Shown piece by piece: positions 3,395 to 56,535 of a stretch of 64,000 nt of DNA (positions are counted from its first letter, which is position 1; every line of letters starts with the position of its first letter). Source of the stretch: an uncultured Thermoplasmatales archaeon (GTDB lineage: Archaea > Thermoplasmatota > Penumbrarchaeia > Penumbrarchaeales > Penumbrarchaeaceae). The notes beneath the pieces are model-generated. The model searched no databases, had not been told where the DNA came from, and saw only the letters and a program-made list of their open reading frames with translations. The stretch spans positions 35,577 through 99,576 of the forward strand of contig CAWEDU010000009.1 in assembly GCA_963807965.1 (NCBI GenBank). Reading direction: 5' to 3'. The translations under genes were made by a program, and so were the position numbers.

Positions 3395-3863
3395 TCAGAT
3401 CATCTTCTTAAGGAGGTTGTTGATCTCCTTTCCTCTGTAACCCAATGCACCACCAACAGTGAAGTGTCTCTTGATACCCTCATATCCACCCTTGTTCGGT
3501 GGTGATAGTCTGAATAGTGGTTTTGCTCCTCCCAGGTCCTTGTATTTGAATCCGTTCTCGATCACAGCACCTGCTAGTTCATCCACATTCTTGAAAGATG
3601 ATCTGGATTTAATGAACTCATCTGTCAGTGGAGAACCACCATCGATCCGACCCCTCTGCCGTATCATTTCTGCAAGGGTATCCCTGTTCTACTTCACCCC
3701 AGGTGACATAATCCTTTACCTTCTGGAGCATACCCTTGAATTCTGGTGTTTCAGGTATGACAACACAGTGATTGACCCTGTTCAGACTCAACAACATAAG
3801 GGTCTCCTTGATATCAGGTTTCACTCTCAGTGTTCCCCTGACCCTTACCACAGCGAGGGTCAT
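3395..3863 (-). CDS. rpl30: Ribosomal protein uL30 with an apparent frameshift near 3682.
   Basis: N-terminal fragment 3618-3863 ([22 protein letters not shown]…KVKDYVTWGEVEQ) and C-terminal fragment 3395-3667 (…[25 protein letters not shown]…KPLFRLSPPNKGGYEGIKRHFTVGGALGYRG…) overlap. Removing one G from a GGG run restores a contiguous uL30. Confidence 0.8.
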
Positions 3864-4799
3864 TGAACCTCACCTCCATCCGTTTGGACCGGTTCCTCAA
3901 CTCCCAGAACAGGTCCTGAAAGATGTTTCAAGGCGATCCTCTGGCCCTTTTGTACCCTCATCAGAGTGGTTCCCTTTAGTGCATCCATTACCGCCTTGGC
4001 ATTGTTGACTGTGGTCTTGGTCTGTCCCCTGGAGAATCCCCAGGCATCTCTGATACCGGCTAATTTCAGTATCTTCTTAGCCACATCTCCTACTGCCAGA
4101 CCCACTCCACGGGGAGCAGGTCTAAGTGTAACGGTTGTGGACCCCGCCCTGCCTTCGACCTTGTAAGGGAAGGGAATGTGGGTTCATGCATCCGCATTCC
4201 CAAGATCCGCAGCCTCTGTTAAGCTCTATCATGTTGAGCTTCGCATTATCAATGGCCTTTTTTATGGTAGGTCCAACTTCTTTCCCACGTGCTGAACCCA
4301 GTCCAACATATCCATTGCTGTTGCCAACGACAACTGTGATAGAGAACCGGGTCCTCCGTCCGGAATCGGTCATCCTCTGGACCATGTTGACCTTTAATAC
4401 CTCATCAACGAGGTCTTCACCAATTATTGTATCAACTATCTGATGTTCCCTTAAAGGAAGACCAGAGCTCAGAGCATCATGCATAGAGGATACCTTCCCA
4501 GCCTTGACAAGGATTCCGAGTTTTGTCTTGGGATCCCAATCTTCCTCCTCGAACCTATCCCTTTTTGGACCTCTACTCTGTCTCCCCGGCCTTGATGAGC
4601 CCCTCCCCCTGGAGTCACCTGCAGGTTTTACAGTTCCTTTGGTAAGGTTTGGTCTCTTTCCCCGTTCTGTTTCTTCCTGGGTCTTGACAGCCACATCATC
4701 GCGTTTATCCTCCGGGATATCGACCTCGGCCAAGTCCACGGGTTTATCGGGATTTTCTTTCACTTCTTCTACCTTCTTCTTATCTTCGGTCATGGTCAC
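3860..4799 (-). CDS. rps5: Ribosomal protein uS5 with an apparent frameshift near 4165-4175.
   Basis: The 225-aa N-terminal ORF contains the S5 dsRBD and ends …[14 protein letters not shown]. The next frame reads …[44 protein letters not shown]… (81-aa ORF 3860-4105). The junction is at a CCC/GGG homopolymer. Confidence 0.85.
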
Positions 4800-5299
4800 A
4801 TCTCCAGGATCTTGTTCTTCATGGCCACGAAATCTTCCTCGAACCCATCGATCTCCTTGTGACGTCCGAAGATCCGGTCCTCTTCCGGAAACATTCCTTC
4901 TCCGTGTGGTATGTCAAGTCCAGCATCAAGCATTCCCCTAAGAGTGGCAAATACACGGCTGCCTGTCTTGGGTTCTTGCAGACCTATATCGAGAACCGCC
5001 TCATGGAGGTCTGATTTACCTGCTTTTACCCCTGCTATGAGACCCACAAGGTATGATGCTGTAGTATCCTTGATAGAGTGTTTCCAACCCATTTTCTTCA
5101 GGTCCTTATATCCTGCCTGTGCAAGGACAAGGTCCCCATTCATATCGAACTTTATAAACTGCACAGTGGTACCTGAAAGGCTTTTCCTTACCACCGCTCT
5201 GGGTTTCTTTGATTTTACTAGAGAAAGTCTGGACCTGAAATTGGTCTTTCCCTCTCTCCTTCTCCTAAATGGCATATGATATCTTGGTCCGTCTGCCAT
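4796..5299 (-). CDS. rpl18: Ribosomal protein uL18
   Basis: 167-aa ORF, uL18-like sequence, conserved operon position. Confidence 0.9.
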
Positions 5300-14512: not shown

Positions 14513-15512
14513 TCACTTACCCTGTTTAGAAGCTGTGCTAACGTATGTGATCTCAGGGGATGATATCTTCACTCCCTTCATTCTGACTGGATCTCTGAAC
14601 CGTATCAATCTTTTTGTCACACCTGGAATTGAGCCGTGTATGAGAACATAATGATTCGTGATATTACCATAATGGATGAATCCGCCTTTTGGATTGATCT
14701 CAGAGGGATCCTTTCCAACCTTGAGTATTCTTTTATTGAACTCTGTTCTCTTATGATATCCCATCTGACCTGAATTGGGAACCGTGGACATGATCCAGGA
14801 TGGATTCCATGGTCCTTGAGTACCCTAGCATCCTCCTGTGTTTTGAGTTCTTATGTGTCAATAGCTTGACACCGAACCTTTTGTTCAAACCCTGGAATCC
14901 CTTTCCTTTCGTCACCGATATTATGTCCACCATGGCCCCTTCCACCTGGAACTCGTTAAAATCAACATCCTTTCCAAGAAGGCCTTTGGCATACTCTATC
15001 CTCTCTTTGATGGATCCTCCCCCGATCCTCATCTCCATGATCTCAGGAGATTTCTTGGGGATAGAAGGGACATTATATGGTTTGGAATGCATTATGACCC
15101 TTATCTCATCCACATCTTCTTCAACCAGTGAAGAAAGGTCAGGTTTTGAACCCTTTTCTGGGATCGGTATCGACCTTAGAAGTTCCTTATCCAGATTCTC
15201 AGCCCAGACCTCCTTCTTCGTGTTCATCCCGTAAACATTATCCTCGTAGAGCCTGATACCCACCACCTTCATGGGTGGGACCTCTACAACTGTTACGGGA
15301 ACCATTACTTCCTGTCCTGAAGTGGTCGATGTCGGCCTGTAATCCATAATAAAGGCGTGGGTCATACCAGCCTTGTATCCTGCGAAGCCCTGTATTTTTG
15401 GTTCGGAGCTACCAACCTCTGGCCAGTGCTTGACTATAGGGGTCTCCCTTTTGGCCCTTTTCCTAGGTGAATGGGCCATTGAACCTCTTCTTGGCTTGTG
15501 TGCTTTACCCAT
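14513..15512 (-). CDS. rpl3: Ribosomal protein uL3 with an apparent frameshift near 14795-14812.
   Basis: 253-aa N-terminal ORF (MGKAHKPRRGSMAHSPRKRAK…KHRRMLG) ends in nonsense. The next frame continues …GTQGPWNPSWIMSTVPNSGQMGYHKRTEFNKRILKVGKDP… (92-aa ORF 14513-14791). Junction is at a GGG run. Confidence 0.85.
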
Positions 15513-15760
15513 CTCATTCCTCCGATATTTCGGTTACTATCGGAACTAAACCTCCATGCATGGTTAGCACAAGGTCACGCTCCTGCGCCTATCCGACCGT
15601 TACGTCGTTCCCGGAGACAACAAATATCCCCCAGAGGGGAAGGTCTCTCCGTTACAGGGTCCCGTGAAGGTTGCCCTTAACGTTTGGCCGGAGGGCTTCT
15701 TTGCGCTTTGGCGTCCGGCCATAAAGGAAGTAATATATATAATTACCTGAAATTCAAATA
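15513..15760 (-). promoter_or_regulatory. Putative promoter (TATA-like ttaattatatatatt at ~15740-15756, minus strand) and a ~230-nt GC-rich structured 5' leader of the rpl3 operon.
   Basis: AT-rich TATA-like box sits upstream of the operon's first gene. A perfect 7-bp hairpin GGCCGGA-n21-TCCGGCC lies at 15687-15721. Leader GC is far above that of neighbouring intergenic DNA. Confidence 0.4.
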
Positions 15761-19322: not shown

Positions 19323-22300
19323 TCACTCTTCGAAGGAATCACCTTTTCCTTTCTTTCTCATCACTAATAACATCACTATAACCAATATGATGACCAGGAC
19401 TACAATTATTCCTATACAACAGAGGTAGAAAGGAGGATCATCACTGCTACTTCCAGATGATGGTTCCTTGGGCATCAAAGCTGTACCTGAGTAGGATTGA
19501 GCCATGTCAGGACCTCCTTCGGTTTCTGAGAAATGGTAATTATAATCCTCTTCCCAATCGAATTCCTCATATGGTATTAAAACCCTGTAATTTCCAGGTG
19601 CATCCTCAACAACATTGAAGGATCCAATACCATCTATCACAATGTATATTGTCTGTCCCTCTGGTCCTTGGACCTTCACATCCCATGTGCCGCTCTCTCT
19701 AACTTCCACTGTGGCTGATGTAATTGACCACACAGGTGGACTATAGGGTTCCTCTGGAGTCATTATGGTCCCGTTGAATTCCTGAGCTCTATCCAGACCA
19801 CCATAGGAATCAGTGAAGAAATAATTATATTCCGTATCCCAATCCAGGATTGTACCGTTTATTAGGTATGTGTATGTCCCGGAAGGACCTTCCGCAAGTT
19901 CCAGGTAGTCGATGTTTAAAAAGAACATAAAGATGTCCAAGTTGGGTGGTCCGGTTACTATGACAGAAACATTCTTACCTTCATCTACGGTGACCTCTGC
20001 AGAGAAGATATCCCATGGATCGGTAGCATTTCCAGTCATGAACCACCATTCGAACTCTTCCCAAAGGGGGAATCCTTCATAGGAGATCACCGTTGAAAGG
20101 ATCCTAACTGAATAATTTGTATCTGGCTGGAAAGGATCATGGCTTATAGTAACAATCGTAAGGGAACCATCCCAAGCAAATGTGGTATTTGCCACCTCTG
20201 GTGTAATAATAATCCCATTGGAAACTGAGCTGATATCCATGGTATGACTGAACTCGATCATTATCGGTGAGTCCAGGTATACTCCCTCTCCCTCAGGAGT
20301 GTTATAAGTGATGTTAACAAAGGAGGGGGATGTATATTCAATGAATTCAAGAGTGATGTCAAGATCGAAGGAAGCGACAGTCAAGGAAAAACTCTCTGAT
20401 TCCTTTTCCTGATATCCTGATCTCAGATCTTCCACTGGTTGTAACTCCTCCGGTGGAACTGCGAGGATACTGTAAGTACCAAATGGAATTGCCTGGAAAA
20501 GGAAACCACCCTCAACAGTTGCTTTTGTCCATGAAACAGGTCCTCCGTCTTGGATCAAAGTTACATTAGCTCCGGGTATTCCACTTTGGAATGGTCCTCC
20601 ATCACCGATTACCTTTCCCATGATATTTCCAATTGTCAAATTTTCCAGTATAATATTATGTAGGATCGGATTCCAACCATCGGTAATAAGAGGATCACCT
20701 TCATAAGGATCATAGAGGGGTGTCCTTTCCACAATTATCCTGTACTCGCCCTTATTTATTGTGAATATGTAGAAACCTGTCGCATTTGTCGTTGCCTGTC
20801 GAAGAACGATAAATGTTCCACCCTCTTTCACCTGGAGTGTTACATTGATACCAGGAACGGGGTCCCCGGCCTTATTGGTAACTATTCCTGTAATGAAGGT
20901 TGAGGGTTTTAGAACAAGCATAAGATCGTTGATCTGTCCTGAAACAATTACATCTGTTTTTGAGGAAAGAGTATTATTGAAAGTACAGGAATGAATAGTT
21001 TCCAGGATACATAAGAATGGAAAAGGACCCATCAGTTCCTGTTTCTACGGTATAAGGCATGAATAAAGGATGGTCATTGTCAGAGGCTTCTAAGTACCCA
21101 TGGATACCAATGCCCTCATCATCCACAAGTGTGCCGTTCACCCAATATTGGATATCGCCTATAGGATCAAGGTAAATATCATGCTCACTTGGAGCCCTTG
21201 TTGACAGATCGATCTCTTCACTTTCTGGGTAATATCCAATTCTAGTTGCCTGGATCACAACGTGGTCCATTCCCCAGGTCCTGTAGAATCCATTTAGCAT
21301 TGAACCTGTATCGTATCTAAACAGTTCGATCCCCTCAGGAAGAGGGGGGGCCATCATCATTCTTGAGGAACCAGTAGGATGATATGAATAGGCGTTGATA
21401 TAAACACCTCCGATCACCTCACCAGTAACAGAATCCCTTGTGAATCCGATTATATCGCCTGGTTCCCCCCTAGGATAAAGAGTAACATCTCCGATACTCC
21501 CAGGAGTCATCGGAACATTGAGATTGGTGGGGTTGAATGCCCATGGGTTTAATAGTTTGTTTTCGGGATAGTAAGTGGTATCGAAATACACATTACTCCC
21601 GGGATTAACCCTGAAATTGATACGTCCCAATGAATCCGTATAGAAAATATCCCACTCGCTTAAACCTCCTATATCATAGTCTAACCAGACCCGAAGATCT
21701 GCTACCGGAGTTCCAGAAGGATCCTTGAAGGTCAGATAATAGTCTCCTGGAACCGGGGGCGCTTCCCATGTATCTCTATCTATCCGGATCTCGATCGGAT
21801 CGTTGCTTCCATTCAATATCACTAAATTATTAACTTTTCCTCTTCCATAAGAACAGGTAGCTTCTATCTCGAAGTATTTACCAGCGATCAATTCTCCGTC
21901 AAACACGCCTGTTCCATTGGCATCAACATAATTGGAATAGTAATGCCCTTCTACCTCAGCTACTCCTCTGATCTCTGCGTCCTTGATGGGAAGACCGGTC
22001 AGGTTGTCTACCACGACGATCTTCACAGTTCCTGTTGGAATGTTGGGCATATATGGTTCATATTCCTCCAGAACGATCTCATAATTCAGGGCTCTGACAG
22101 GATTTGTATCAATTACAATGCTCCCTGAATTATATCCACTTTGATAAGCCTGGACAATGATCTTCTGCCCAATTGGAAGTTCGAATTCCAATGAACCATC
22201 AGGATTTACATAGGAACTGAAATAAAAGGACCATAATCCATCAGGGAAGAAGAATGAATTGGACCAGGAGATCCTGGCACTTTTCAGAACACTTGTCGAG

Positions 22301-23316
22301 TTTTTCACAGTGACATTCACAGTTATTGAGGGGGGAGGTGTAAGTTCGAATTCCATATCCTCCGGAGTACCATTCATTACAATGTTTCGTATGACAGTAA
22401 TATCCGTATTCGGATATTCAACGAAATCAGCATTTAGGTCTAATTCCGTCTCCCCCTTTCTACTATCGATCTCATACCAGCCATCCGTGTCAGGATAATG
22501 AGTATCATATTCTCCTCTGTGAGCATATTCAACAGGATTCAGGAATACTTGCATATCTCCCTTATTGATCGGTTGTCCGTTGGATGTGTTGATGAACCTT
22601 ACCCTTGACTGTCCGTCAGGCATGTAAAGGGGGATGAGATCGAAATCAAAATTATAGGTGGTTTGTCCCTCTCTTGTGAAGATTGATCGAGAATTTATAT
22701 TATAGCCGGGGGTTTTGTAAGCTGAGAGGGATAGGCTTTCAGATTCTGTGATAGGGGCCATGAGAGAATACCTTCCATCGACACCTGTGATATTGCTCTT
22801 AGAAATGTAATTCCCAAGTGAATCTTGTCCAGAAAACGATACCCAAGCTCCTTCAATAGGAAGTGAGGAACTCAGATTACTTACAATCCCAGTAATCACC
22901 CTATCGTAAGCTGGAAGAGGGTTCAGGACAATGTCCTTGAAAACGATCTCATCAGGGAATACTGCCAGATGTTCCATGAAAATGTCATCATATGAACTGT
23001 CCTCGATCCTTATCTCACCCTGGCCAAGCTGTTCCCATTTGATATCAAAGGAGGCCTGTCCAGTGGAGTTCAGGGCCATGGTTGAGTATGAATAACTAGA
23101 ATCAGGTTGCCATGATATGTACAGACCCTTCACGGGGGTTCCATTTGGATGAGTTACATTCACATTCAGGGTACCATTATGGTAGTCTGAAAGTGGTGCC
23201 TTCCCATTTCCCTGGACTTCACCCAGGTTCAACATGGAAATGGATGATAATATCATAACGAACAATACTATGATTGAAATTATCCTTGTTTGCATCCTCA
23301 TAATGACACCGTCCAA
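19323..23316 (-). CDS. Large cell-surface protein (~1330 aa) with a signal peptide, repeated carboxypeptidase-regulatory-like/Ig-like beta-sandwich domains and a C-terminal TM anchor. Apparent frameshift near 20974-21032.
   Basis: The 780-aa ORF (N-terminal signal peptide MQTRIISIIVLFVMILSSISMLNLG) and the 569-aa ORF (C-terminal …CCIGIIVVLVIILVIVMLLVMRKKGKGDSFEE) overlap by 59 nt in different frames. Both are rich in N-x-T/S sequons. Confidence 0.6.
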
Positions 23317-23413
23317 TACCTAATATATACTATCAATACAGTATATTTCTTATTTTAATGGTTAGGTTGGTTCGTCGAATCAATCTTTGAGTCCTTCAAG
23401 ATACTGACCTGTC

Positions 23414-32120: not shown

Positions 32121-35100
32121 TCATTCCTCCTCCCACTGCATTATCTCATCATCATCAGGCTGTCTTCTACCCGCAATGAGAAATCCCGATATCAGGATGA
32201 TCATGATCAACAGAGCAGCGAATAACGAGATTCTCAGATAGTTGTCCCCCTTATCATTGCCTTTGGAAATTTCCGGAATAAGGATCGGGTCTGACTCCCG
32301 CATTGGACTCTCACCTATCTCGTTTTCAGCTGAAATTCGGTATACGATAGATTCTCCGGGCTCGCAATAGAGATCAACAAAGGAGGTTAACCTACCATCT
32401 ACAACCGCGATCTTCTGAAGGGAAAGATCATGATCCGACCTGTACACATTGAACCACAACTTCCCCGACCCTTCATATTGGTGGGACCATTCGAGAACCA
32501 CCGAATCCCCAATTGATCTTGCAATTAATAGGTCTAGGGAGGGCGGTATCTCATCAGGTACTTCCTTGTACCTCTTCACCTGGTTCCGATTTACCGGCAT
32601 TGTTGATTGCCAATATCCTGTAGCAATAATCGATACCCGGTTGAACGCTGTTGTCAATGTAATTCGTCATATTGGCATCGACATTTCTCAGGTTACCAAA
32701 AATCCCATCAAGTTCTCTCCGCTGAATGGAATACCAGGTGAGATCCAATCCTCCATCGAATACGGGATGTGACCATGAAAGCATCAATCCAACACCGCTG
32801 GGAATGATTTCCAATGATACTGGGCTGTCGGGATTTGAGAGGGGAAAGGCTGAAAGATTGATGCTAGGCTGTGATGTGCCGTATTCACCCAATGCCAGCA
32901 ACCGGTAGGTATAGATCGTTTTCCTGGAAACATTCAGGTCTTCGTAGGACCTCCAAGACTGATCAAGGTCTATAGATATCTTTGAACCATCATCCTCTGA
33001 GGTCCTCATCAACCTGTATCCCTTTATTGATCCAGATCCAAGGTCAACAGGGGCTCTCCATTCCAGTTTGATCATAGAAACTCCGGGATTGATGGTGAAA
33101 TTCCTCGGAGTAGAGGGGATCCCTAAAACCTGACAAAAAACAACATCGGACCTTCCAGATTCCCCCATATCATTCACTGCGGATAAGTAGTAAATATGAA
33201 CTACATTTTCCTGAAGATCCTGGTGCCTGAATGATGTGACATCACCCGGCAATGTTGACAATAAAACGGCTGTCTTTAAGGATGTCCCGTGGAACAATCT
33301 GTATTGTTTAATCCCTGAACCCCCATCATCTGAAGGGGCCATCCATTCAATATCTATGAAACCGATCCCTCCTTCTGCATTCAGGGCAACGGGTGGACCT
33401 GGTATTGTCTGCTGAACGACTGTGACGGGAAGGGTCAGTTCGGATTCCCCGAGATCGTTAAAAGCTGATATAGAGTAGTAATATTCAACACCCTTCCAAA
33501 TATTCGAATCATGGAATAGAAGATCCTCCGCTTCCGAGGACGCATACAGGTCCATTGATCTTTCATCCAACCCCCTGTAGATGAAATATTTCATAATATC
33601 TAGACCTCCGAAGCATTCAGGTTCCTCCCACATGAGGAGAACTTCATCTTCGACTATCCTGGCATATGGATTTCTTGGAGCAGAAGGGGAGTCCTTTGAA
33701 ACTGCAGTGATCATATCCGAAAGATCTGACTCGCCGTTGAAGTTCCATGAAGTCAGGTAGTAATCGGTACTGAGTTCCCTGTTCGATATCCATGTCCTGA
33801 TATTGTCTCTCATCCGAAGATAGATTGGCGATCAATCTTCCATCTCGGTAAAGAGAGAATCCAGTAATGATTGTTCCGCCATCGAAGGATGGAGGATCGA
33901 AGAAAACGGATATCTCCCTCAATGCTATTTCCGCTCTTATACACTCTGGTGGATCCGGAATTGTTGTTGAGACATTGCTGACGGTCCTACTTGCGGACCC
34001 CTCACCAAGTTTATTCAGTGATCTAACAAGATAATTATATTCGATTCCGTAATCCACCTCGTTGTCGACGAATGAAGTATTGGTAATATTGAAATTCGAC
34101 AGTTCCCATGATACCCTGTCCAGCGACCTGTATATGTTGTAGCTGATCTCACAGTATCCACCGTCATCGACCGGAGGCTTCCATTCAAGGGAAATATTCC
34201 CATCATTGCCTCTGCAGAGAAGTTCTACAGGTTCACTCGGAAGGGTCTGCATGGTGACTACGGTAAGGAACATCCCCCCAGTGCCATTGTATGATGTATT
34301 AAAGGACCCTTTTGTTATCGGAAATTCCGGTGATCCGGTTAGCCCAAGTATTGTCATATTGTTTTTATCAGTAAGAACGCTGGAATAAGCCCATTCAACA
34401 TCGGATCCGCCAAGATAGGATGAATACCTGAGATCCGAACAATTGTTGTCGAACTTGCAGATGAAAACATCGGATTCCCCGCTAAAAAAGCTGCTGACCG
34501 CTCCGTTGGATACAGGAAGGTCGGGGGAAATAGTCTCTCCGTAGAGATAGACATTTCCGGCTTGGTCAAGATGCACCCTTTTCGCGGTTTCATTATAGGA
34601 ACCTCCGATAAGAGTCGACCATTCGATGGATGATCCGTTCCAGAGCATCTTTGCAGAAAAGGCATCCCGCCATCCAGAGAAGCTGGAGCAGTATCCCCCG
34701 TTTCTTAAAGGGAACAGGGCATTGGTTCCCCACATTTCCCAGGTATACCCGCAGTAGATTATATTGGAATCCTTGTCAAGCAGAAGATCCTCAACCTTGC
34801 ATTCTCCAACAAGGCTTGAAAAGATTGTCAACCTTGAAATCGGATCATAGCGGAGAATGAAACCGTGGGAATTCAAGCCACCTTTGAAAAGCTGGAAGGA
34901 ATAGGGAGTAACTGGGAAATCGCTCGATTGAGTCCATCCTCCGATAACTACAGTGCCATCTTCATCTATCTCTAATGCATAGGGGACCTCACCGTAATAC
35001 CCATCCCAAACCATTGAGTCGATGAAACCGGTAGCATTTGGATCAAGGATTGAAAAATAGGCGATTCCATGAACACCTCCCAGGGGTCCATGAGCTCCAG

Positions 35101-36330
35101 GCAGATCATGAGAATGGGAATCGCCAACGAAATAGACACAACCGTTCTTTACCTCCATATCCCGTACAAATCTCCTCCATCACCACCGACGAATGTTGAA
35201 TAGAGCAGTTTATCACCGGATGCATTGAACTTTGAAATGAATATATCCGAATTAATGTTATAGTCCTCCTGGACCACTCCCGGTGTTGTTGGAAAATCGG
35301 GTCCGTATGTCTCACCGGAGACATAGATGTTCAGAGATTCATCGATGCGGATCCTTTTGACCATATCTCCATACCACCCTCCCAGAAACGTTGAGAAAAC
35401 AAGCCCTGTCCCAGAACTGTTCAATTTTGTTACGAAGATGTCTGACGCATTGTATTCTTGATCATACGCTCCAGTTGTATTCGGAAAATCCGGTGAGTTA
35501 GTATTTCCTGTTAAATAAGTGCAGTTAAATTCATCCTTTACCAAGTCACTGGGGTAACACCCCCGGCTGCTCCCTATCACAGAGGAGTATACGAGAGGAT
35601 CTATCGTAACGATCTCTCCTCTTTTCTTCTCGATCTCGAAACCGTAACTTGTTCCATTGATCCTCTTAAAACTCACAGGAAGGTTCAATGATCCAGTGGA
35701 ATAAGCTATAAGGTGACCGTCGGTCATTGACAGATCATCCGAGATGAGCATATTCAGTTCAAGGTCTGTTATTGATAATCCTTCGATACCCTGAACATCC
35801 AGGTGAATATCCTCGGGATCTCCGTTCTCCCTTATCACAAGGTCGTATTTTAGCCCCTTTTTATTGAAGTAATATCTCACATCTATATCTGGCCAGACAT
35901 CCTTGAAGGTTACTTCTTTAAAACTCCTTGCTCCTGTGACCCAGCCATCAGGGTCGTCGCCGATGAAGTAATTGGATGGAAAATCCATTTCTGAAGATCC
36001 GAATGGATGGGATCCAAAGGATCCTTTGAAAGATACCCGTACCAGATGGAAGGCTTCCCTGAGGTCATAGGAAATTCCATCACTCTCAATATAAGCGAAT
36101 CCAAAATCTGTCCTGGAAGAAAAAAGTATCCTTTCATCCCATTGTCCCTTATTTTCCGTGAAATAACCGGAAACCTCGAAATCTTCTATTTTATCAATGT
36201 AATTCTCCGATGAAAGTGGGAATATTTCAATTGCTTCTCCTGGAAAGAAAAGGAGTGGGGATATGATCATTGAAAAAATGCATATTATAGTCTTTGCTGA
36301 AAGTAGTAGCTTAAACGACACCATATTCAT
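32121..36330 (-). CDS. Giant surface protein B (~1400 aa), a paralog of A: signal peptide, ENxGQW N-domain, SBBP repeats, multiple FN3 domains and a C-terminal TM anchor. Split into 4 ORF fragments by at least 3 apparent frameshifts.
   Basis: ORFs 35149-36330, 33644-35158, 32554-33813 and 32121-32657 overlap pairwise in different frames. Domain patterns continue across the junctions, e.g. the FN3 …GTQY|YYLTSWNFNGESDLS. C-terminal TM ISLFAALLIMIILISGFLIAGRR. Confidence 0.6.
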
Positions 36331-36542
36331 CCATCCATCTTTAGTATTAAGTCAAAACAAGACCGTAAGTATATTAATGAGATTGGAGGTCTTTTTTATT
36401 TTTATATAACCTCATTTGTACGGTTTTTGCATGATGAATCCAAGGAAAGGGTCACTACTTTCCTTATACGCCAACTATCAATCTGATAGTCAATTCGATT
36501 TCACTGGAAAACAATTATTAATATGCATTTGATCCACATCTC

Positions 36543-38493: not shown

Positions 38494-39958
38494 TTATCGC
38501 TTCTTCGTTGATTTCCGATTGTACAAGATGATTATTCCTAGGAAAATGGATACCATTGCAGAGATGGAGACGACGATCCAATATTCAGGTCCCCTCTCCT
38601 CAGAAACCTCGGTAATATCCATTTCATTCTCATTTCTAATATCCGGATCCGTTGTGAAAAGTAGGGGAAAGGGATCGATTGCACCACCTGTAAGTTCTTT
38701 CTCTCTGTCTACAACACCATCCATATCCGAATCGTTCCCCTGCCAGTCAGACCAATAATTTCCCTTTCCATCCTCGGACCATTCTGTTGTACCTGTTCCA
38801 TCCATTGCTTGATCGCCATTAATATTGTTGTTTTCGAAAATGTTTCTGAAAATACTATTTTGGCCCAAAGGGGATGATATGTGTTGAGTGGTTACTACCT
38901 TAACTGCCTCCTCGGTCGTATTGATGAAATAGTTATCCAGTACTTTGTTCCCAAGAGATGTATCTAGAACAAGACCGTTCTCGTTGGATTCGAATCTGTT
39001 TCCTTCTATGAGGGATCCTGAGAGGATATGTCCAACAAACCCGTATGAGTTCTTCCAGAAGAAAGATCCTTTGATACTAGCATCAGTTACATGGAGAAGG
39101 TTAACACCATATGAATTGTACCTGAATCTGGTATCTTCTACCCGGACCCTATCCATATTTGAAACCTGTATCCCATTGATATTCGAATCGCTGTAACAGT
39201 TAGATATTACAAGGTCCCTCCCTCGAATGGATCCGTCCAAGGACCCTATCACACTTATCCCTTCTCCATAATTGAGGGTACCAAAACATTCTTCCATAAT
39301 GATGTCCGAGCAATTGATTAATTTCTACCCCTGCTCCTAGACCTATCGTGAATGAATTTGCATCAGTTAGGACATCCTTCAAGACCAGGTGGTCAGAGTT
39401 ATTGATGAAGATCCCGTATCGGGTATTATAAGAGCAAATGCATCCTGTAATTGAAGAATTATCTGCCTCCATCATTATCCCATTGTGATTTTCGATGAAC
39501 GAGGAATCGTGGACACGGATGTTATCAGATCCGATGATCTCCAGACCTATGTTGAAGTAATAGATATAGGACCTCTCTATCCTAATATTTGAGCAATTCT
39601 TGATCCGTATTCCGGATTCCGTTACATTCAAAGGATCTCTGAGGTCCAGATAATGGGTCACGGCGACCTCATATATGAGGAGATGAGAGGTCACATTCTC
39701 AAGGACCACTCCTATTCCTGATGATACATTGATCCACCAACGGTATACAAGGAAGGGATCATCTTCTTGACCAGATCCCGAAACAATACCGTTTTCAGTG
39801 GTAAGGTCTTCCTCACCGTTAATGATTATTTGATCGAACTTGATGAAATCGGGATTGCCGTTATCCTCCTCTCCTTCAACAATTCCTGCAACCAAACTGG
39901 CCTGGATCATCATTACAATGATTAGGGAGATCTCAATTCTCATATTCTCACCTGTCAA
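38494..39958 (-). CDS. Right-handed parallel beta-helix (NosD/pectin-lyase-fold-like) membrane-anchored protein, ~487 aa. Apparent frameshift near 39200-39297.
   Basis: N-terminal fragment has a signal peptide (MRIEISLIIVMMIQASLVAG) and repetitive N.S.I.GN-type beta-helix turns. The C-terminal fragment continues the repeats and ends with TM VVSISAMVSIFLGIIILYNRKSTKKR. Confidence 0.55.
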
Positions 39959-40028
39959 GGTTGTTATAACTCTATTATTGGATTTGTGGTCGGACTATAT
40001 AATGAAGTTGGAACGAACTCAGACATGA

Positions 40029-53407: not shown

Positions 53408-53750
53408 TTGATGTTGGAGTTTGAAAAGGACCGGGAGGTCAAGGTTGGTTCACTCGGTCCGTTAAGGATTAAAAAGGGAAAATATGCCTATATAGGTTCT
53501 GCTAAAGCCGGAGTCTGGAGAAGGGTGAGGAGGCATCTGGAAGGACCTGTAAATCCCAGGTGGCATATAGATCACCTATCAATTATTATCCAGAGATAAG
53601 ACCGTCTTCTTCAAGGATTATGGTCCCGGTGATGAATGCTTATCAGCTGAATACCTTTCAAAGAGATTCACATCTGTTCCAGGTTTCGGTTCTTCAGATT
53701 GTAAATGCGGTTCACATCTATTCTATATGGACCAGTTAAAGAAGAAATAG
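53408..53750 (+). CDS. DUF123-family (GIY-YIG-like) protein with an apparent frameshift near 53590-53600.
   Basis: First frame reads …VGSLGPLRIKKGKYAYIGSAKAGVWRRVRRHLEGPVNPRWHIDHL…. The second frame reads …DECLSAEYLSKRFTSVPGFGSSDCKCGSHLFYMDQ* and ends at 53750. Confidence 0.5.
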
Positions 53751-54539: not shown

Positions 54540-56535
54540 TTACCAGAAGACGAAGCTCCCGTATACGAGAAGATGTCCGATGAGGAAACCAAGGATGGCC
54601 CCTCCGTTCAATGGAGGCAGACCGGCATGAGCGCTTCCTTTCAATACCCATCTGATGAGAATTGCATAACCGAGAAGCATTCCCAACATGGTAAAGAGAG
54701 CTACAGAAAGTGGTCCCGATAGACCAAGCAGTCCATCAGCTTTTGGAAGCCAGGCAAAGGAAGATATCACCAGGATTCCCGGGATGATAACATCTCCAAG
54801 TCCCATGAACAGTGATTCCCGTTTTCTCTTTGGATCCATCAGGTTGGTCTCATCCTCGTATCTGTAATCAAGACGCATCGGAAATACCAAGAGAATTGGC
54901 ATTTTGGATTCCACCACCGAATCTGCAAGCGAGATCATGTGTTTTGTCTTGTAAACGGAAATGGCATCATATACTGCGAGAAGCACCATGAGAAGGAGTG
55001 TGAATAATATTGGGAAAGAGGTCCCCATCATCGCTACTACACCAGCTCCCATCAGGATCCCGGAAAGATCGATTATCCACCATTTTGGGATCTTCAGGAG
55101 GAGAACCATCATACCAACAGCTATCAGGAATGCTGTTACCTGAACCCATATCTGCATTCTCTCGGTACTCGTCGAATTGTCCTATTAGAATAGCTCCATC
55201 GAAAAACAGATAGATATCGCCATCAGGACCATCCTGGAAAACACTCAAAGGTTCTTCAGTGAAAGAGTAGTCTTTCTCAGAATCCTTTGTCCGAACACCA
55301 ATATCCTTACCTGATATGAAGATGAACCTGTATTCAAGGATCCGTCGATCTTCACCCTGGACGATCTGATCATATGAAGCCATATAACCATTCTCGAGAT
55401 CCCCTGTATGGAAACCTCTCAAAACATGGGATGAACTATTAACTGGTCCAATAAAAATGGATACCAATACGTTATCTTTAGTTGGATATTCATCTCCAAC
55501 TTCAAGGAATGGATCCGGTGACCAGAAAAGGGTATTATCACCCTGAACCATACACCAGGTGAAGTTAAAGGTACCTGTTCCACCCCCGAATCTTCTTAGG
55601 ATCATTCCATTTTTAAGTTCAAAAACAATTGAGTCTATGGAATTATTTGAAGTATATCTCACTCTCTTGTCAGACCATCCGAAAACAGGATAGAAGGGTC
55701 CTTCATTAAGACCGATGTTTTCTATCCACGATCCAGGACCATCGCTTCCAGGTTCGAATGCGAGAAGTGACCAGTTACCGTCATCAGCTTCCCAGAATGA
55801 TATCAGATAATGTGTCTCGTTCGGATATGCCATTGAAACACCTAGGAGCTCATATGATCCATCGATCGTTCCAACGAGTCCACTGTCCACAAACCTTCCG
55901 TCACTGTTAACTGTCCAGTAAGGGTGATTCCCTTTTTCTGATCCAGTAAGAACCCACAGATCATTGCTGTAACTTGGATCGAATGTGCTCTCTAGATCCT
56001 CGGTTTTCCATATTTCATCATATTCATACTTATTCTTTTCAAGGACATGGAATGACGAATCTGTGACAACGATGATTCCCTTTCCGGGATCGTCCGGATC
56101 AAGGGGAAGAACTCCTCGAATACCATCGATATCCAATTCATACTCGTCCCAGACCTCCGGAAATCCGTTGGCGACAATATCCACCAAAGGAGTGAGAATG
56201 TAAAGTGAGGAAAGAAGGACCGCTGCTGCAAAGAGATACTTCAGCTTGAACCGTCTCCTTTTCAACAATTTTCTAAGGACCAGAATAAATACCGCGAATC
56301 CGATCACAAATCCTAGGAAAACGAAAGCATAGAGAGGATTATCCGCATATCTGCTCATCTCAGAAGTAATCCCAAGTGCATCAAAATAAGGACCTATCCA
56401 AAGGGCCAATAGTAGTGTGACGACAATAAGGATCACCATCATGGAGATAGGCATGACAGCTTTGATGGGAGTGAATGATGAAATCTCCTTCTCCATTTCA
56501 GAAGGACCTTCATCCTCCCCCTGGTTTTCTTTCAT
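54540..56535 (-). CDS. Presenilin/signal-peptide-peptidase (A22) family intramembrane aspartyl protease. Probably one ~660-aa gene: 3 N-terminal TM helices, a ~400-aa extracytoplasmic domain, then 6 TM helices carrying YD and GLGD motifs. Apparent frameshift at ~55157-55182.
   Basis: C-terminal ORF 54540-55157 has …LLAVYDAISVY… (YD), …FMGLGDVIIPG… (GxGD) and …GLPPLNG… (PAL-like). Upstream ORF 54967-56535 has 3 TM helices plus a large hydrophilic domain. The ORFs overlap by 190 nt. Within the overlap the upstream frame encodes low-complexity text, whereas the downstream frame encodes TM helices. Confidence 0.5.

Follow-up and report, generated by a model that had tools for sequence, protein, structure and literature searches.

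The locus and its catalytic core

The window analyzed here (the whole stretch of 64,000 nucleotides, 64 kb, from contig CAWEDU010000009.1 of an uncultured Thermoplasmatales archaeon) carries on its minus strand, between positions 54540 and 56535, two overlapping open reading frames (ORFs) that encode parts of an intramembrane protease. ORF1 (54967..56535, 522 aa) and ORF2 (54540..55157, 205 aa) overlap by 191 nt, and ORF2 lies in the +1 frame relative to ORF1. The locus probably corresponds (probability of about 0.8) to a single gene for an archaeal presenilin homolog (PSH, MEROPS A22, GxGD-type) with nine transmembrane (TM) helices, which is split in this assembly by one spurious base. This is also what the first-pass annotation, made from the sequence alone, had proposed, and it is borne out by complementary profile matches, by intact orthologs, and by the identification of exactly one extra base. 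The features of the gene, numbered where necessary on the protein repaired by deletion of this base, are the following.

54540..56535, minus strand: complete gene, encoding an intramembrane aspartyl protease of the PSH family that carries a propeller insert; 664 aa after deletion of base 55169
56170..56535, minus strand: N-terminal part, an acidic cytoplasmic N-terminus followed by TM1-3 (NF041679 positions 2-87, hydropathy, charge)
56389-56457, minus strand: TM1 (hydropathy and charge; helix 23-53 in the AlphaFold2 [AF2] model)
56272-56337, minus strand: TM2 (hydropathy and charge; AF2 helix 68-92)
56173-56241, minus strand: TM3 (hydropathy and charge; AF2 helix 98-123)
55171..56169, minus strand: predicted extracellular seven-bladed beta-propeller, residues 123-455 (AF2, Foldseek, charge, glycosylation sequons)
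55169, minus strand: extra base (minus-strand A), cause of the frameshift and probably an insertion of assembly or sequencing (four-way DNA alignment)
54540..55168, minus strand: catalytic core, TM4-TM9 (PF06550 and NF041679 matches, alignment with PSHs of the PDB, Foldseek)
54966-54971, minus strand: YD motif in TM6, residues 522-523
54792-54803, minus strand: GLGD motif in TM7, residues 578-581
54609-54617, minus strand: PPL motif before TM9, within GLPPLNGG
54967..55167, minus strand: out-of-frame tail of the 522-aa ORF, i.e., the DNA of TM4-TM6 read in the wrong frame (three-frame translation, ortholog coverage)

The family assignment comes from both ORFs. ORF2 matches the Pfam family PF06550 (SPP) with an E-value of 2.9e-53 (181.6 bits, for a cutoff of 23.9) and the NCBIfam profile NF041679, named "presenilin family intramembrane aspartyl protease PSH," with an E-value of 2.2e-67 (227.6 bits, for a cutoff of 125), the latter over profile positions 92-280 out of 281. 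Residues 33-122 of ORF1 weakly match positions 2-87 of the same profile (E = 0.0026). The two halves are thus complementary, and the cut, after position 87 and before position 92, falls in the TM3-TM4 loop. By hydropathy, ORF2 has six hydrophobic helices, with YD in the third, and ORF1 has three helices and, after them, an acidic hydrophilic stretch, in agreement with the count made from the sequence at first reading. The repaired protein has nine hydrophobic segments, and the AF2 model of its closest intact ortholog nine long helices.

No variation is seen in the catalytic motifs among the seven aligned members of the clade (the repaired window protein and six orthologs). Residues 470-661 align with the PSH of Methanoculleus (PDB entries 4HYC, 4HYG, and 4Y6K; phmmer E = 5e-46). 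In this alignment LLAVYDAISVY is identical in the two proteins, as is GLPPLNGGAILGF, and MGLGD stands opposite MGMGD. Foldseek matches the membrane part of the model to the PSH crystal structures 4Y6K and 4HYG with E-values of 3e-8 to 5e-7 and 38-40% identity. The YD, GxGD, and PPL signatures that the first-pass annotation had placed in the C-terminal ORF are therefore in agreement with the profile matches and with the alignment to the solved PSH. The idea that PPL departs from the PAL of the family does not stand, since GLPPLNGG is common to the window protein and the solved Methanoculleus PSH. In conclusion, each sequence and fold comparison that was run places the protein in the PSH/A22 family, and its gene is interrupted in the assembly. 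Because the motifs are fully conserved, the core would be expected to work as other PSHs do, by water-mediated aspartyl cleavage of a membrane-docked substrate helix.

Orthologs, synteny, and the extra base

A search with the 522-aa ORF retrieves six other proteins (P0002-P0007), which are 650-677 aa long, 37-68% identical to it, and all endowed with PF06550. They cover just the first 83-87% of the ORF; its last ~66 residues, which lie in the overlap, match none of the six. This fits the earlier remark that the upstream frame decodes there to out-of-frame text. The repaired 664-aa protein can be aligned with all six orthologs over its full length, and with the closest intact one, P0002, it is colinear with zero gaps. 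Among genomes sampled at one per GTDB species, single open frames of ~610-675 aa with a matching architecture are found at eight loci (L003, L004, and L006-L011); L006 runs into the end of its contig, and at a further locus, L005, the gene is cut by a contig end. The species genomes with an intact gene are all metagenome-assembled genomes of Thermoplasmatota, the top match being "Thermoplasmatales archaeon ex4484_6." Gene order is the same in all loci of the window type: UPF0179, HMG-CoA reductase, adenosine kinase, PSH, a DsbD-like gene, and aCPSF1. Hence, by sequence comparison, the two overlapping frames are most probably one gene, because the orthologs (the six database proteins and those of some ten species genomes) are intact as single ORFs of 640-677 aa, are syntenic, and are collinear end to end with the repaired protein. 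Orthologs with the same insertion, which the first-pass annotation had proposed to look for, thus exist as single ORFs, and two separate genes in relatives, the outcome that would have spoken for a true split, is not what is found.

Aligned with the junction DNA of three orthologs, the window has exactly one extra base, which none of the three shares. Its sequence there is GACG-A-GTACCGAG, compared with GACGGTACCGAG in the sister contig L083, and deletion of the A at 55169 gives GQFDGTERMQIW, which is identical at the junction to the sister contig/closest ortholog. The break had been expected between 55150 and 55190, an interval that contains it.

This base is not an isolated case. The gene rpl3 is split (window 14516-15533, minus strand; break at ~14750-14825), with positions 5-253 and 256-369 of the Ribosomal_L3 profile in different frames, and so is rps5 (window 3863-4913, minus strand; break at ~4122-4183), with its N and C domains in different frames. 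These two splits strongly indicate that single-base indel errors are present in the assembly. A DUF123 gene (53408-53739, plus strand) is frameshifted by an extra T at ~53588 and is intact, at 114 aa, in the sister contig. The 4.5 kb that can be aligned between the window and L083 (85-95% nucleotide identity) contain three indels, each of them a +1 insertion on the window side; the third is at ~54489, just upstream of the DsbD-like gene. In the two halves of the PSH that flank the break, protein identity to the sister lineage is 97-98%, with no sign of decay. The break is most likely due to an assembly indel, because rpl3, rps5, and DUF123 are likewise frameshifted in the window, and from this genomic context we judge the frameshift to be very probably an artifact of assembly or sequencing.

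Large genes for secreted or surface proteins in the window also extend across overlapping frames, and, judged from the ORF overlap, they probably contain further frameshifts. Such groups occur on the minus strand at 32554-36351 (DUF7948, SBBP propeller repeats, and fn3), at 19323-23319 (CarboxypepD_reg and Big domains), and at 38494-39994 (beta-helix/NosD).

Some observations pull the other way. The extra base lies outside any homopolymer run, which is the commonest context of long-read errors. No near-identical 664-aa protein is present in the protein collection, where only the 522-aa and 149-aa calls are recorded, with no independent assembly. The frameshift could then be genuine, and the locus either a pseudogene or a source of two polypeptides, one made of TM1-3, the propeller, and a junk tail, the other of TM4-9 starting at the Met460 codon (55157). 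The two pieces might even reassemble, as presenilin works as N-terminal and C-terminal fragments. The second frame opens precisely with an ATG, upstream of which stands the purine-rich GAGAGA, and the deposited annotation has two genes at the locus. However, rpl3 and rps5, which are universally conserved single-copy genes, are broken likewise within the same 64 kb, as is DUF123, and the three indels out of three relative to a sister contig with ~90% identical DNA are all insertions in the window. Furthermore, every intact ortholog has this Met inside the protein, in the sequence ERMQ, so that it is not a new start, and the protein sequence on both sides of the break shows, as given above, no decay. 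A genuine split is therefore improbable. Programmed +1 ribosomal frameshifting, by which the overlapping frames would be joined near 55169 into the full protein, has next to no probability, as the break is conserved in none of 16 related loci, the orthologs are continuous and of equal amino acid length across the junction, and other genes of the window are broken in the same manner; nor is there ground to expect a conserved slippery or stall motif.

The reading of the locus as one gene split by one spurious base has consequences for the public record. In the deposited annotation, made on a contig of 430.7 kb, the locus is represented by a 522-aa protein without precomputed Pfam domain (P0001) and by a 149-aa protein with PF06550 (P0021), which is annotated from a downstream Met; the public record of this genome therefore does not show the propeller-bearing PSH. 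More generally, the assembly of the window contains many single-base insertions that break conserved genes, those of ribosomal proteins included.

The predicted propeller and its variable blades

The insert extends from residue 123 to residue ~458, i.e., ~335 aa, in the loop between TM3 and TM4. The first-pass annotation had described an extracytoplasmic domain of ~400 aa between these helices: its location is confirmed by the profile break at 87/92 and by the topology, and its size was overestimated. The topology follows from three elements. The TM2-TM3 loop, KLLKRRRFKL, contains six K/R and is cytoplasmic; the insert contains 60 D/E for 22 K/R; and the protein has five N-x-S/T sequons, every one of them within the insert. 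An N-in topology is accepted for presenilin and PSH. This positive-inside charge pattern, the sequon distribution, and the N-in topology lead us to infer that the propeller lies outside the cell.

The structure was modeled with AF2 on the closest intact ortholog, P0002. With 8 sequences in the alignment, the insert has a predicted local distance difference test score (pLDDT) of about 90, and the membrane core is poorly modeled. With 99 sequences, after addition of 91 canonical PSHs, the whole protein has a pLDDT of 82.7 and a predicted TM-score (pTM) of 0.77. The pLDDT is about 90 over residues 130-320 and 380-455. The secondary-structure string shows 28 strands at residues 130-452, which read as seven blades of four strands, the first strand (130-133), from the N-terminus of the propeller, completing the last blade. 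Searched against the PDB with Foldseek, the insert matches many seven-bladed propellers of the WD40 type (E-values of 1e-8 to 1e-6, target TM-scores of 0.47-0.57, ~10% identity). Structure prediction and Foldseek, which had been suggested for this domain at first reading, thus name it: the insert is predicted to fold as a seven-bladed beta-propeller. The fold remains a prediction, and residues ~320-370 have a pLDDT of 42-56, which tells against it. We are nevertheless highly confident of the structural identity of the gene, as a PSH with a propeller in the TM3-TM4 loop.

At the sequence level the domain stands apart. The insert matches no Pfam family at E < 0.1, and its profile has no sequence relative in the PDB. 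A HMMER search with this profile of 1.84 billion representative proteins gives five matches, all of them propeller-bearing PSHs in which the domain starts at residue ~120-130 (four proteins of 641-668 aa, in which it reaches residue ~460, and one fragment of 249 aa). As far as sequence tells, the domain is confined to this clade of PSHs, and it falls outside all the named propeller families in Pfam (WD40, FG-GAP, PQQ, SBBP, etc.). Directly after TM3, all propellers of the window type have the strongly conserved motif NGxPxxW...D...LPLDPxDpG...SSFH (residues 123-165, ~56041-56169), which could contact the protease core or the membrane surface.

The blades are not equally conserved. In comparison with the sister contig, nucleotide identity is 85-95% in the flanking genes and in the membrane parts, and it drops in two patches of the propeller, neither of which changes in length (L083 1719-2047 and surroundings).

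55771..55950, minus strand: hypervariable patch 1, residues 196-255, blades 2-3; 48% amino acid and 53-69% nucleotide identity to L083
55228..55680, minus strand: hypervariable patch 2, residues 286-436, blades 4-6; 39% amino acid and 38-67% nucleotide identity to L083
55351-55578, minus strand: mosaic core of patch 2, with incongruence between lineages

Along the protein, amino acid identity to the sister lineage is distributed as follows.

TM1-3: 97%
Residues 123-195: 84%
Residues 196-255 (patch 1): 48%
Residues 256-285: 83%
Residues 286-436 (patch 2): 39%
Residues 437-458: 86%
Core TM4-9: 98%

The conserved blades 1, 2, and 7 adjoin the anchors in TM3 and TM4, and the variable rest is made of blades 4-6 and of the patch across blades 2-3. 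Within patch 2 the pattern of similarity changes among lineages. At residues 320-395, the window protein is 51% identical to P0003 and 28% identical to P0002, which is otherwise its nearest relative, and P0002 is there closest to P0004 (42%); blades 4-6 thus come in two allele types, one in the window and P0003, the other in P0002 and P0004. Such incongruent similarity indicates exchange of blade cassettes or an old polymorphism, not simple fast drift, and the variation of blades 4-6 suggests, from the sequence alignments, cassette-like recombination or balancing selection. Their variability is, we infer, as expected of an exposed surface that binds ligands or is targeted by viruses. A diversity-generating retroelement (DGR) was considered as the origin of the variable blades and rejected, since 38-48% nucleotide identity over 450 nt far exceeds adenine-only mutagenesis, and a sensitive blastn comparison of the variable region with the 64-kb window gave no match but the region itself, hence no DGR-like template repeat.

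A second propeller type and the proposed role of the insert

The clade is not the only one among PSHs with a long TM3-TM4 loop. A search for PSHs gives 3958 matches at E <= 1e-10, and among the matches listed most proteins are 300-330 aa long, together with shorter fragments; canonical PSHs vastly outnumber both propeller types. The second type is found in other Thermoplasmata (L015 5821-7767, L018 5803-7776, and L048 5857-7923), as single-ORF PSHs of ~620-640 aa with an insert of ~310-330 aa after TM3. These inserts match the Pfam FG-GAP_3, FG-GAP, and BBS-type propeller families (integrin-alpha type). Homology between them and the insert of the window was looked for, and none is detectable (hhalign probability of 0.4%). 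The loop and the approximate size of the insert are thus the same in the two types, whereas the propeller family, the placement of the core, and the synteny differ. In a rough neighbor-joining tree of the core, built without support values, the PSHs of the FG-GAP type are found among the canonical ~300-aa PSHs; in the same tree, the proteins of the window type form their own clade, with the L011 type as sister. L015, L018, and L048 also lack synteny of the window type. The FG-GAP-type insertion is therefore likely, from these comparisons, to be independent of the window-type insertion. Both types have a Trp soon after TM3, which in the FG-GAP-type propellers lies 6-7 residues after this helix.

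Other variants exist. L011 (3626-5575) and L023 (1-1506) form a sister group, itself made of propeller-bearing PSHs and with window-type synteny; their insert resembles that of the window over its first ~120 residues only (blastp E = 4e-4), and they have YDF for YDA and PFL for PPL. A length variant of the family is L052 (5602-6843), a PSH of ~400 aa without insert in the loop and with a highly acidic, low-complexity N-terminal extension of ~90 residues.

A possible, if doubtful, generalization is that the PSHs of Thermoplasmatota gained an extracellular seven-bladed propeller in the TM3-TM4 loop at least twice independently, and that in the clade of the window the distal blades are swapped like cassettes.

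Among known systems, the closest is MCMJR1, the PSH of Methanoculleus marisnigri (4HYC, 4HYG, 4Y6K), with which the window protein shares nine TM helices, YD, GxGD, and GLPPLNGG. MCMJR1 has 301 aa and a short TM3-TM4 loop, whereas the window protein has a propeller of ~335 aa at this place, which doubles its length to 664 aa. For structure and mechanism, archaeal PSH serves as the usual substitute for presenilin, and it has been treated as a bare nine-helix enzyme without accessory domain. PSH needs no partner subunits (PMC9282858).

The combination of a presenilin-type core with a large extracellular domain over it recalls gamma-secretase. In that complex, the ectodomain of nicastrin lies above presenilin and is believed to keep out substrates whose ectodomains are long. 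The resemblance is an analogy without homology: nicastrin forms a subunit of its own, with a single membrane pass and an aminopeptidase-like fold, whereas in the window protein the propeller is fused in cis. There is a likeness also with RseP, a site-2 protease, i.e., a prokaryotic intramembrane protease with an extracytoplasmic domain between TM helices, where the periplasmic PDZ domains act as a size-exclusion filter. RseP is an M50 zinc metalloprotease with a PDZ insert and is not homologous to the protease of the window. A literature search found no paper joining presenilin, beta-propeller, archaea, and intramembrane protease, and surveys may still mention long PSH variants. The catalytic core is ordinary, and what stands out is the inserted propeller, restricted to a clade and hypervariable, together with its convergent FG-GAP version.

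By analogy with these systems, we tentatively propose that the propeller acts in cis as a substrate receptor or as a size filter. Substrate helices bind at the TM2/TM3/TM5 region in the structures of gamma-secretase with its substrates. Since the propeller is tethered to TM3 and TM4, it would lie next to this region, over the face of the enzyme that corresponds to the substrate-docking side of gamma-secretase, and from there it may admit the ectodomain stubs of type-I membrane proteins, as a built-in receptor or size filter. Modeling of PSH with C83 was based on PDB 6IYC (PMC9282858). Against the proposal stands that we know of no archaeal PSH with an established natural substrate; a Haloferax PSH homolog is listed with function unknown (PMC9263693).

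Other roles are conceivable for the same domain, together of a low probability close to that of the proposed one, and the data fit all of them alike: a sensor of ligands that switches the protease on, an anchor to the envelope or S-layer, or merely an exposed, fast-evolving surface under pressure from viruses or predators. The extreme and mosaic variability of blades 4-6 among near-identical genomes is typical of diversifying or balancing selection and would fit such roles, as would the use of propellers as generic interaction platforms, the Foldseek matches being scaffolding WD40 proteins. Against them, no partner gene is specifically linked to the PSH, whose neighborhood is one of conserved housekeeping synteny, and the search of the window for a DGR-like template repeat was negative. 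A functional link between the PSH and its DsbD-like neighbor was also considered and is unsupported, as the two belong to a housekeeping synteny block and only one cysteine occurs in the insert.

Should the propeller be a receptor or gatekeeper in cis, these proteins would be single-chain minimal analogs of gamma-secretase, in which one polypeptide unites the core with the ectodomain filter. As such they would provide a tractable model for the control of presenilin-type cleavage by an ectodomain filter and a route to the substrates of archaeal PSHs, for which the soluble propeller domain would be a handle. The idea of an ectodomain filter is strengthened by the second clade, because it has a propeller of dissimilar sequence in the same loop. 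The existence of a clade with a built-in propeller raises the idea that an ectodomain filter or receptor may be of advantage to presenilin-type proteases in archaea as well.

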